NCBI RefSeq assembly: GCF_054482525.1
Contig: NZ_JBTHVG010000006.1
DNA: 36,373 nucleotides
Reading direction: 5' to 3' (one strand)
DNA from: a plasmid
Below, piece after piece: positions 1 through 3,000 of this stretch (its first letter is position 1; each line of letters begins with the position of its first letter). Made by a program: the position numbers.

Positions 1-3000
1 TAAAATGAAATGCTCATCTGTTTTTACTTCAACCACTAATCATGTTTTCACATTCGAACGAGTAACGCTTTGCACTATTATCCTTATGCATAAGGATACT
101 GGACAACAGTATGTTGTCATATTTACTGATAACAATAAAATTCGTGACTATAAAGCCGGAATTGTTCCTCAGTTTGGCGAACTTAAGCAGAGTGATGTTG
201 ATTTAGTCCTTTTCTACAGGGACGAATATGAAAAATATTTTGATTCATTAAAAGATGGCGATGAATGCTTGAGTTTTAAAGATTTTATTGAGTGTCTTTG
301 TTAAGCATTATGAATGCAGGGGCATCCCTGCATTTTCTGGAAATTTCAATATTGATTCTGAAATTGTCTATTAACATCAATGCAAGGGAAATTCATGAAA
401 ACGTTAAAACAAGCCGCAATGCAGTTTGCATCTGATCTGCGTAATAATCGCTGTTTTAAAGCTGCTTATAATGATGCTCTGTTAGAGCTTGATCGGGAAG
501 ATTTAAACGCCATTGTACAATGCACATTTCTTTTTGAGCCAAAACGAACATTAGCCGAACTTGATAAATTAATTAAAAAGATAGAAGTAGAAGAAGATTA
601 TGAGTTTTGTGTATCCCTTGATAAAGGTAAAGGATTACACGAAGTCAGAACATTTAAAAGTGAGCGTGAGGCGTTGGATGCTTATCGCATTTTGACTCTT
701 TACGGATACACAGTAACTATAGAAAAGAAGGAGGGTAATGACTGACTATTCAAGGTGTGATCAGGTTGTTCCACCAACCTGATCACGTTATCGACAATCA
801 AAACTGAATGAGGTTTTTAAATGTCAACGCGGCAGATCGTACAGCTTGCTGATTCCCTTGTCAAAGGCTGGGAAACCAGAATTCCGGCAATGAAATTTAG
901 CGAATGGGATCAATTCCGGTGGTGGTTAAACTACTTGCAAGGGTATGAAATGTTTTAAATAAAAAAAGGGGCTTTCTGCCCCTTTGTATTTTTTGACAAA
1001 AATGCCATGTGTAACTATAATTAGTTGCATATCTATAGGGGATGGATTTATGGGGAAAACAGATAAGCTACTGGCAAAGTTTTTAAACAGTAAAAAAACG
1101 TTTGAATGGGATGAACTGGTCGTTTTGTTTTCCTCTTTGGGATATGTCAAAAAGGAAATGCAGGGGTCAAGAGTGCGGTTTTTCAATGCTGAAATCAATC
1201 ACACCATATTAATGCATCGTCCACATCCGGAAAGTTATATCAAAGGTGGTACGCTGAAAGCAATTAAACAGAATCTGAAAGAGGCTGGATTATTATGAAA
1301 CATTTAAAATATAAAGGATATTTAGGCACGGTTGAACCCGATTTTGAAAATAATGTCCTGTATGGAAAACTGGCGTTTATTCGGGACCTGGTAACTTATG
1401 AGGCTTCTACATTAGCTGAACTGGAACAGGAGTTTAAAACATCTGTTGATCTGTATTTACAGTCTTGTGTGGAGGATGGAAAGGAACCTGATACCCCGTT
1501 TAAAGGCGTATTTAACGTCAGGCTTGATCCAGAACTGCATCGTCGGGTAGCAGAAATGGCGATGGAAGAAGATTTATCGTTGAATGCCTTTGTTAATAAG
1601 GCTCTGGAAAAAGAAGTCAGCAATCATCGCGCAGGGGCTTAATTGCCCTTGTTTTTATGCCCTGTAAGGGCATGGGAGGCGCTTTGCGCCGGAAGCCCCG
1701 CAGCGCAGCGAGGACTTAAAAAGCGTTACGGCTTCAGCCGTAACAATTCCCAGCCCTGCCAGGCCTGTTTTTTCTTTCACAAATCTTTCAGCTATACGTT
1801 TGCCTGATGGTCGAAGACGAAAGAATCTTTCAGCAACGAAATCTGGACATATGCAGCGACGATTTTATAGCCAGGCACAGTGCCACATATGGTACAATCA
1901 ATGCAGGATAGACAATCCGATGTCAAATGTTAACATTTGAATCAGATTGTCCAAAAACGATGTTTTTGCCTGTGCCTGCCGCAGGCTCTGTTGGGGTGAC
2001 TTATGAAGATGATAGCGTTCAGGCTAAGTGATGATGAGTTAAAATTTGCAGAACATAACGCTATTTTAAGTGGATTTACCAGTATCAATGCTTTTGCTAA
2101 GCATAACGTGCTTAATATTGAAACCAAGCCTGTTAACATCCCAGTTAATAATGAACCAGCAAAGCTGGTATCAGTGCGTCTTTACCCTCATGAAATAGAA
2201 CTTGTTAAACGTAATGCTGCTCTTCACGGCATGAGCATGAGCAGAGAAATTGCTATTCGTGTGCGTCAGTCTTTGTTAAAGAGTGAAGTCTGTCTTTACC
2301 CTGATGAAGTTAAGGAACTTAAAAAACTATCAACTGCTGTAGATCGTGTTGGTCGCAACATTCATTTTATCATAAAAGGTGAAAGATTCTGTACGGTTAA
2401 CGATCCAGATTTCAGAAAAGACGTTATTGAAGTGATTGAACTGTGTAAGCAAATTGATTCAAAACTTGAAACGTTAACCAAGAGTGTTGTTAACAGATTT
2501 GGGTGATTTATGGGTGTGTATGTAGAACAGGAATACCGTATTAAACGCGCTAAAGGGACTGGGCGTGATCCGAAATCTCCTAAGTTATCGGGAAGACATA
2601 TACATGCCAGTAAATCGGCTTTTAATCATAAAGTCAGACATGGTGCGGACAAGAAAGCATATACCTGGACACCTACAAAAGAAGTCACTTTTAAAATCAC
2701 TGGCTCAGGTAAAACAGCCGCAGGCATCAAAAATGGTATTGATTACATTACCCGTAATGGTGAACTTGAGGCTTACTGTTATGATGGAAAAGGTTCAGAG
2801 CAAACAGGGAAAGGAGAAGACTTTAATAGGGAGTTTACTTCAACTTTATCTAAAGGAAATGATTACTCCAGGACATATCGTGGAGAAAACATCGATCATG
2901 TGAAAAACATGGTCTTTTCACCACCACCAGAAGCTGGAGTAAGCAGGGAAGACGCTCTGAAAGCTACGGTAGAATTTCTTAAAGAGACTTATCCAAACCA

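Follow-up and report, generated by a model that had tools for sequence, protein, structure and literature searches.

The plasmid analysed here (36,373 nt; contig NZ_JBTHVG010000006.1 of the NCBI RefSeq assembly GCF_054482525.1; this whole stretch is called the window) can be recognised from its sequence as a complete, circular conjugative plasmid of the IncX4 group carrying mcr-1, and three of its small genes, named ORF1, ORF2 and ORF3 (ORF, open reading frame), are the subject of this work. They had been pointed out together in a reading made without database searches (hereafter, the sequence-only reading), which assigned all three to positions expected for the conjugative leading region, i.e., the part of a plasmid that enters the recipient first, and proposed them as candidates for anti-restriction or anti-SOS functions. 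The account towards which we lean, with moderate confidence, separates them: ORF1 and ORF2 would be dispensable accessory genes of the leading region whose products act on the new host, and ORF3 would be a separate gene of the ddp3/taxD type. The colistin-resistance gene mcr-1 travels mainly on IncX4 and IncI2 plasmids, whose establishment in new hosts is poorly understood.

ORF1 (positions 5-304, plus strand; 99 aa, WP_000650309.1) and ORF2 (395-745, plus strand; 116 aa, WP_000854259.1) are annotated in RefSeq as hypothetical proteins. The longest frame of the latter spans 380-745, and the RefSeq start is the ATG at 395, the start MKTLKQ being found in every homologue. The ratio of nonsynonymous to synonymous substitution rates (dN/dS) of ORF1 is approximately 0.15-0.25 when compared with the copies of IncI2 and of an IncX4 variant (copies of 85% and 69% identity), and ORF2 shows a dN of 0.113 and a dS of 0.652 against the copy of a Tatumella plasmid. 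These values imply that both are coding genes under purifying selection and rule out that they are chance ORFs. Together with the conservation of ORF3 (29252-29779, minus strand), this bears out the three ORFs as they were originally delimited, all of them being real genes. Both ORF1 and ORF2 are poorer in G+C (33% and 36%) than the plasmid (42%).

Where do these genes stand with respect to the entry of the plasmid? The window contains a 94-nt inverted repeat whose arms (1899-1992 and 29794-29887) are 99% complementary, and each arm holds an internal inverted repeat followed directly by TATCCTGCATT. In origins of transfer (oriTs) of the RP4/IncP type, on which MOBP relaxases act, the nick falls within YATCCTG/Y (the slash marks the nick), just 3' of an inverted repeat, and entry begins with the DNA 3' of the nick. 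The relaxase of the IncX4 plasmid is typed as MOBP, and the two arms show what such oriTs consist of, i.e., an inverted repeat joined to the YATCCTG/Y motif, next to the gene of a relaxase accessory protein (taxA, whose start lies 10 nt past the 94-nt repeat at copy 1) and in two inverted copies. Having two oriTs within long inverted repeats has been described as distinctive of IncX plasmids (PMC3402527). Copy 1 (1899-1992) is read on the minus strand, with the inverted repeat followed by TATCCTG/CATT (motif at 1903-1909) and a predicted nick between 1903 and 1902; copy 2 (29794-29887) has the same sequence on the plus strand, and its nick is predicted between 29882 and 29883.

The location of the nick motif of copy 1 on the minus strand, combined with the IncP/MOBP rule of polarity, implies that the transferred strand runs leftward from approximately 1902. 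With the nick as predicted, it follows that the order of entry from this copy would be hicB, hicA, the small genes and then the genes between 35924 and 34300. The stretch from 34300 to 1642 holds nine genes, all in plus-strand orientation; the minus strand, being the one transferred, is the template for the leading genes, including ORF1, ORF2, a 45-codon gene that follows them (ORF45) and hicAB. ORF1 and ORF2 belong to the first-entering side, the predicted nick being 1.2-1.9 kb away. From copy 2 the plus strand is predicted to lead, starting at 29883, and the 8.4-kb segment between both predicted nicks is leading for both origins; within it, gene orientation flips at the iterons of the gamma origin (33103-33278). 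The same geometry is found in the F plasmid, where ssb, psiB and an antirestriction gene share their strand with traM/traJ on the opposite side of oriT, so that in both plasmids the side that enters first holds the genes, with the transferred strand serving as template. The leading-region position put forward in the sequence-only reading stands, therefore, for ORF1 and ORF2 (by virtue of the minus-strand TATCCTG/C of copy 1) and falls for ORF3, which is on the inverted-repeat side of copy 2.

As a separate observation, the oriT sequence of IncX4 is present on many plasmids of 2-4 kb that have no relaxase (e.g., NZ_CP148294.1, of 4.2 kb, and NZ_CP076316.1, of 2.1 kb), as matches to 1899-1989 of either 91 nt at 99% identity or 37 nt, including the nick motif, at 100%. 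A total of 268 such records are typed as "non-mobilizable", and these small plasmids may hitch-hike on the IncX4 relaxase.

From the layout of the region, we infer that ORF1, ORF2 and ORF45 constitute one operon, the oriT-proximal one of the IncX4 leading region. Its bounds are set by the ribosome-binding site of ORF1, which lies within the end of a repeat of approximately 415 nt, by a hairpin with a T run that resembles an intrinsic terminator after ORF45 (965-985, plus strand), and by the presence of a separate promoter for the next genes. This last is a full σ70 consensus (TTGACA-17-TATAAT, 12 of 12 matches; 993-1021, plus strand) in front of the toxin-antitoxin genes hicA-hicB (1050-1642, plus strand), which lie between the small-gene operon and oriT. 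ORF45 (821-958, plus strand) is unannotated in the RefSeq record used for comparison; in other contigs it does have a gene call. Its conservation exceeds that of its neighbours, with homologues of 82-100% identity in IncX4, IncI2, IncX6-like and other plasmids, as well as in a 24-kb plasmid with a MOBC relaxase, and with a dN/dS of 0-0.13 (against one IncX4 variant, six synonymous and no nonsynonymous changes).

Upstream of this operon, a second leading-region operon of four plus-strand genes (34300-35924) encodes a J-domain protein (34300-34815), a 180-aa protein (34920-35462) that corresponds to cds16 of Yi et al. 2022, an 83-aa protein (35459-35710) and, overlapping the latter, a 75-aa helix-turn-helix protein of XRE type (35697-35924). 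The gene of the 180-aa protein is kept beside the J-domain gene in every related plasmid examined. Both operons are preceded by the aforementioned repeat, which is rich in G+C and whose two copies are 99% identical: copy A (33880-34293, plus strand) is directly upstream of the J-domain gene, and copy B (35960-36373, plus strand), just downstream of the XRE gene, ends at the ribosome-binding site of ORF1. A total of 3010 places with the repeat were counted across 1190 enterobacterial plasmid records, and full copies immediately precede the J-domain operon or the small genes in IncX4, IncI2, Tatumella and Providencia plasmids. IncI2 has, in addition, a partial copy upstream of hicA, and spurious ORFs are sometimes annotated inside the repeat.

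Each repeat copy contains one site resembling a σ70 promoter, TTGCAA-17-TATTAT (34209-34237 in copy A and 36289-36317 in copy B), whose spacer holds a 20-bp palindrome, ATACGACTTAAAGGTCGTAT, that occurs in the plasmid exactly twice, at 34215-34234 and 36295-36314. The recognition helix of the XRE protein and the palindrome co-vary among related plasmids, in a sense that an identical helix comes with an identical palindrome, and four other helices come with four other palindromes. That the palindrome varies in step with the helix suggests that they are a repressor-operator pair. Based on this, the following mechanism can be proposed. The 75-aa XRE-type protein would bind the palindrome in both promoter-like sites and, upon arrival in a recipient free of the repressor, the ORF1-ORF2-ORF45 operon would fire in a burst, perhaps being active even earlier from the folded single strand, and would then be shut off. 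During establishment, the products of ORF1 and ORF2 would most likely target the new host, by anti-defence or by some other reprogramming of host functions.

Control of this kind has precedents in the repressor-governed "zygotic induction" of entry genes, e.g., that of the Kor regulons of IncP plasmids. The resemblance lies in the small helix-turn-helix gene beside promoters that bear a palindrome, at both operons of the leading region; unlike in the Kor systems, the binding of the XRE protein is predicted, and it has no homology to KorA, KorB or ArdK. One XRE regulator, EcaR, encoded on IncI2 and some IncX4 mcr-1 plasmids, is reported to activate the wec operon of the host (PMC12612032). The XRE gene at 35697-35924 is suspected to be its homologue.

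The second element of the proposal, the activity from a single strand, leans on the secondary structure of the repeat, in which a Frpo-like single-strand promoter or priming signal is reasonable but unproven. The repeat folds better than its shuffled versions (z = -3.7) and, in an alignment of ten copies, 12 pairs show compensatory changes, whereas shuffles show 7.4 +/- 1.2 and slid controls 0-3; its long stems are invariant and, for that reason, give no covariation information. The strand that carries the structure could not be decided by folding energy, since both strands are equal in this respect. G-T wobbles favour the transferred strand, but the structure itself was predicted on the transferred strand. 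The leading genes of F and IncI1 (ardA, psiB, ssb and hok), with their Frpo/ssi promoters, are among the closest parallels: besides the geometry described above, they share with the window the dispersed, structured non-coding repeats upstream of transcription units and the interspersed toxin-antitoxin genes. They differ in that the proteins of the window have no homology to theirs, ssb and psiB are missing, the repeat folds alike on both strands and shows neither sequence similarity to the F leading region nor an identifiable -35/-10 pair in its stem, and early expression is predicted. A homology between the repeat and the Frpo of F was considered and rejected, as blastn and nhmmer searches against the F leading region yielded nothing significant.

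The place between the XRE gene and ORF45 behaves as a variable slot in IncX4, IncI2, IncX6-like and MOBC plasmids: its small genes differ from one plasmid to another, and ORF45, always 3' of them, closes it. In the window the slot holds ORF1 and ORF2; in the IncX4 variant and the MOBC plasmid, a 90-aa protein and ORF1; in IncI2, ORF1 alone; and in Tatumella, a 70-aa protein and ORF2. In other cases the 70-aa protein is accompanied by a 69-aa protein made of the C-terminal motif of ORF1, or by an 86-aa fusion of this motif with the C-terminal domain of ORF2. The fusion genes of two plasmids (L003, at 5369-5629, and L021) are 3 nt apart, and the neighbouring 70-aa gene has a dS of approximately 1.07. 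A near-identical fusion beside a diverged gene indicates a recent exchange of cassettes within the slot, and the existence of a natural fusion suggests that the C-terminal modules of ORF1 and ORF2 work together.

These modules can be delimited in both proteins. ORF1 is composed of a beta-rich N-terminal part of 55 residues and a C-terminal helical motif of about 30 aa (Y..YE.YF.SL..G.E.LSF.[DE]FIECL in the family alignment); in ORF2, a conserved N-terminal module of helices (MKTLKQAAMQF...) is followed by a beta-beta-alpha-beta module at the C terminus. Neither protein has any match in Pfam, NCBIfam or PADLOC, and searches against the PDB with sequences and profiles were equally empty. The sole family match is that of residues 61-98 of ORF1 to phrog_2061, a phage family of unknown function (PHROGs, E=2.2e-10). 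For ORF2, a profile search in 1.84 billion representative proteins retrieved 15 relatives, plus one spurious repeat protein, and tblastn against phages gave no match. The original statement that the ORFs have no recognisable motifs is thus accurate for ORF1 and ORF2, save for phrog_2061, and inaccurate for ORF3, which has a DUF2726 domain. The families of ORF1 and ORF2 are undescribed so far, uncharacterised leading-region genes being, as a kind, common.

The helical motif of ORF1 provides a link to phages. In the form Y..YE.YF.SL..G.E.LSF.E[FW][IL]E, it is conserved in proteins of 42-45 aa encoded in the early region of T7-like phages; its carriers include gp05 of Citrobacter phage CrRp3, a 42-aa protein of Providencia phage PSTRCR_120 and lambdoid-phage proteins annotated as "YdfB". 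In CrRp3 the early cluster that holds the motif gene also contains, three genes downstream of it, an ocr-like anti-restriction gene, and in the Providencia phage the motif gene is upstream of the RNA polymerase gene. These phage proteins are early gene products that share with ORF1 a motif of about 30 residues, but they consist of the motif alone, whereas ORF1 has the additional beta-rich part of 55 residues. The link is context for ORF1 and not an annotation of it.

Are ORF1 and/or ORF2, then, anti-defence proteins (anti-restriction, anti-SOS, anti-CRISPR or similar) that shield the incoming plasmid? This narrower proposal, which is that of the sequence-only reading, appears to us possible and rather doubtful. 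It agrees with their location in the leading region with the transferred strand as template, and with the fact that IncX4 has no recognisable gene for ArdA, KlcA, PsiB or a single-stranded DNA-binding protein (SSB), so that a function of this sort would have to sit in unknown genes; IncI2 plasmids equally have no recognisable anti-restriction or SOS-inhibitor gene. A variable slot with exchange of cassettes is typical of counter-defence loci, and the motif that ORF1 has in common with T7-like phage early proteins is encoded beside an ocr-like gene. Leading regions in general are enriched in anti-defence genes, and 33% of their top families are uncharacterised (Samuel et al. 2024, PMC11541004). 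The islands described in that study resemble the slot in having a conserved frame with variable, small unknown genes in the leading region and toxin-antitoxin genes nearby, although the island of the window has no known anti-defence gene as an anchor. Homology does not come to its aid: ORF1 and ORF2 show no similarity to ArdA, ArdB/KlcA, ArdC, PsiB, Acr or Ocr in Pfam, NCBIfam, PADLOC, PHROGs, the PDB or Foldseek, the last with models of low confidence. The structure-based search that had been recommended was carried out with AlphaFold2 and family alignments, yielding a mean predicted local distance difference test score (pLDDT) of 52.5 for ORF1 and 56.6 for ORF2 (approximately 70 in the C-terminal part of the latter), with three strands followed by two helices in ORF1 and four helices followed by beta-beta-alpha-beta in ORF2; with these models, whose pLDDT is only 52-57, Foldseek found nothing at E <= 0.001 for ORF2 in the PDB or for ORF1 in the PDB and BFVD, and its matches of lower rank do not lend themselves to interpretation. 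Furthermore, the proteins are not strongly acidic, and the position would fit toxin-antitoxin, regulatory or host-reprogramming genes equally well. What remains of the anti-restriction and anti-SOS proposal is circumstantial (the variable slot, the phage early-gene motif and the dispensability in K-12 discussed next), with no similarity of sequence or fold behind it.

Genetic information is available from a Tn5 library of the IncX4 plasmid pHNSHP23, followed by Yi et al. 2022 through two matings from BW25113 to MG1655, in which only pir, tsxB and mcr-1 were intolerant of insertions and transfer needed 18 genes: ten pilX genes, taxA, taxB, taxC, tsxA, cds4, cds9, cds10 (pixR) and cds16 (PMC8725589). 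Insertions in cds16 became depleted once the library had been transferred, and deleting this gene made transfer drop about 4-fold, a change that was not significant (PMC8725589). Mapping the published deletion primers onto the window places cds4 at 25209-25478, cds9 at 4498-4674 and cds16 at 34920-35462, and the transfer genes of unknown function correspond to these three and to 3816-4109, not to ORF1 or ORF2. Unless ORF1 and ORF2 are themselves tsxA and tsxB, the plasmid can therefore do without them both in its maintenance and in its transfer from one K-12 strain to another. Donor and recipient presumably have one and the same restriction-modification background, and the screen would thus be blind to an anti-restriction role; the dispensability counts for such a role to the extent that this absence of a restriction barrier holds.

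The same data bear on a second possibility, namely that ORF1 and ORF2 are plasmid-internal factors (accessory to the relaxosome or to replication, regulators of transfer, or agents of fertility inhibition or exclusion against other plasmids), which we deem improbable. They are close to oriT, to taxA and to the gamma origin; the neighbouring gene of the 180-aa protein (cds16) has a transposon phenotype in transfer; and in distant plasmids taxA-like and relaxase genes have ORF2-like genes as their direct upstream neighbours (the distance in metagenomic contigs, measured to NikA-like and relaxase genes, is 0.6-5 kb). Yet the screen did not return ORF1 or ORF2 as necessary for transfer or maintenance, their distribution is patchy among plasmids with the same relaxase and type IV secretion system, and no DNA-binding motif was found in them with Pfam.

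The reservation made above concerns TsxAB, a new system of the toxin-antitoxin-like kind that Bustamante and Iredell reportedly described in 2019 on IncX4. It opens a further possibility, that ORF1 and ORF2 are a toxin-antitoxin-like or addiction pair, perhaps TsxAB itself, serving maintenance or competition and not entry. They are two adjoining small genes next to hicAB, and TsxAB exists on IncX4 at a map position that could not be located; toxin-antitoxin genes are, besides, over-represented in leading regions (PMC11541004). Natural plasmids speak against it: ORF1-like genes occur without ORF2 in IncI2, in the IncX4 variant and in the MOBC plasmid, and ORF2-like genes occur without ORF1 in Tatumella and in the plasmid L004, by which an obligate pair is disfavoured. 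There is no match to any toxin-antitoxin family in Pfam or NCBIfam, and none of the text and annotation sources searched calls these proteins TsxA or TsxB or gives the position of TsxAB. The overlapping genes of the 83-aa and XRE proteins (35459-35924) are more toxin-antitoxin-like in layout and look a likelier candidate for TsxAB. All in all, we judge distinctly improbable that ORF1 and ORF2 form such a pair.

The account of ORF1 and ORF2 as dispensable genes that act on the new host has points against it too, which lower our confidence. It would be wrong if TsxAB turned out to be ORF1 and ORF2. Their early, zygotic expression is something that we infer from the arrangement of the region. The link between repressor and operator is based on five variants. 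Regarding the repeat, its two strands fold equally well (-84.6 vs -86.1 kcal/mol), most of the covariation is in short palindromic hairpins that can be read equally as protein operators, attempts to place a -35/-10 pair in the long stem failed, and blastn and nhmmer gave no significant match between the repeat and 18 kb of the F leading region. As for the proteins, no known anti-defence, SOS-inhibitor or SSB family was found with Pfam among those of the leading region, the AlphaFold2 models of ORF1 and ORF2 are unreliable, and both proteins are only mildly acidic (isoelectric points of 4.85 and 5.31, respectively), unlike typical DNA mimics.

The case of ORF3 (175 aa; start codon 14 nt from oriT copy 2) is different. 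The claim that it adjoins a second oriT copy is confirmed, in that this copy is an arm of the 94-nt inverted repeat. ORF3 is nevertheless on the inverted-repeat side, in the place that taxA occupies at copy 1, and for that reason it enters last from copy 2; when transfer starts at copy 1, the strand transferred is the coding strand of ORF3, so that the features that define the leading-region genes are lacking in ORF3. The 94-nt repeat ends 10 nt before taxA and 14 nt before ORF3, which gives both genes a common upstream region, with a promoter-like site (1909-1936 in front of taxA), and the expression of ORF3 is probably driven by the equivalent site at oriT copy 2.

ORF3 matches Pfam DUF2726 (PF10881; E=1.8e-13, 50.8 bits against a curated cut-off of 24.7), in agreement with its RefSeq label, and matches weakly the NCBIfam model for the R6K "DNA distortion polypeptide 3" (E=1.7e-6, 28.3 bits), failing its equivalog cut-off of 140 bits; by these scores it would be a distant relative of DDP3 and not an equivalog. 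It was found in 462 plasmid records, in 451 of them with at least 95% identity, a distribution that marks it as a gene of the IncX4 backbone. In IncX plasmids, ddp3 (taxD) adjoins the second oriT, after pir and bis, and it has been described as a hypothesised auxiliary of DNA transfer or as belonging to a trio of proteins by which the alpha and beta origins are distorted (PMC3402527, PMC3332091). By domain and by position (at the second oriT, downstream of pir and of a bis-like gene), ORF3 fits the IncX4 counterpart of ddp3/taxD, apart from the leading-region candidates, and its probable role is to assist in DNA processing or to distort origins. It differs from the ddp3/taxD of R6K and other IncX plasmids in having around 50 extra N-terminal residues and in the score of 28 instead of 140 bits; moreover, its function in IncX4 is a predicted one, and it is not among the transfer-essential genes of the IncX4 transposon screen.

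That ORF3 be a leading-region anti-defence gene tied to oriT copy 2, as initially proposed, seems to us very improbable indeed. Its proximity to this copy would agree with it, as would DUF2726, a nuclease-like fold of a type met in conflict systems. The geometry disfavours it, given the late entry from the inverted-repeat side of the nick, and so do the upstream region common with taxA, the conservation as an IncX4 backbone gene and the correspondence to ddp3/taxD, which is tied to DNA transfer and origin distortion.

With the backbone DNA-processing gene ORF3 set apart from the true leading-region genes, the search for establishment functions is narrowed to one short operon and one variable slot, accompanied by a promoter element and a candidate repressor. 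A bolder extension, which we consider unlikely, can be formulated: the slot would be a recombination hotspot of new, small early-entry effectors that enterobacterial conjugative plasmids (IncX4, IncI2, IncX6-like and MOBC) have in common with T7-like and lambdoid phages, in whose early regions they would be encoded; ORF1 and ORF2 would be among them, countering defences or taking over host functions, and their expression would be launched by an undescribed class of leading-region promoters unrelated in sequence to Frpo. If the genes of the slot did counter defences, they would represent new protein families common with phages and would help to explain the host range of these plasmids.

With respect to the rest of the window, its first 1300 bases match 792 records, 759 of which are predicted to be conjugative, and the identity is 100% with many plasmids of approximately 33 kb from Escherichia, Salmonella and Klebsiella. 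An annotated relative, pWI2-mcr, is typed as IncX4, MOBP and MPF_T, and contains pir, a VirB-like type IV secretion system, taxA/taxB/taxC, hicAB and mcr-1. Compared with it, the window has a 2.4-kb replacement at 17039-19411 and a 1.7-kb insertion of the IS91 family at 30038-31717, and it misses the IS26 of pWI2. The former segment takes the place of 171 bp of the common 33.3-kb form of IncX4, between a TrbM gene on one side and, on the other, a 191-aa gene that precedes the topoisomerase gene, and it codes for a 170-aa protein resembling staphylococcal nuclease and for an AAA ATPase of 420 aa. The IS91-family element, with a Y2 transposase of 399 aa, lies within a bis-like 134-aa gene downstream of pir; being 155 nt past the predicted nick of oriT copy 2, it would enter first from that copy.

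Two other loci of the backbone deserve mention. An Rfam match to the AgrB antisense RNA (23329-23417, minus strand; 58.7 bits) may correspond to a type I toxin-antitoxin locus, because a DinQ-like type I toxin (dqlB) is annotated in the matching segment of pWI2. Close to it, between 22994 and 25174, there are six copies of a repeat of approximately 45 nt built on TGACATAC / GTATGTCA units, surrounding a ParA/MipZ-like gene (24487-25134) and the 89-aa gene at 25209-25478 (the aforementioned cds4); this array is probably a partition site.

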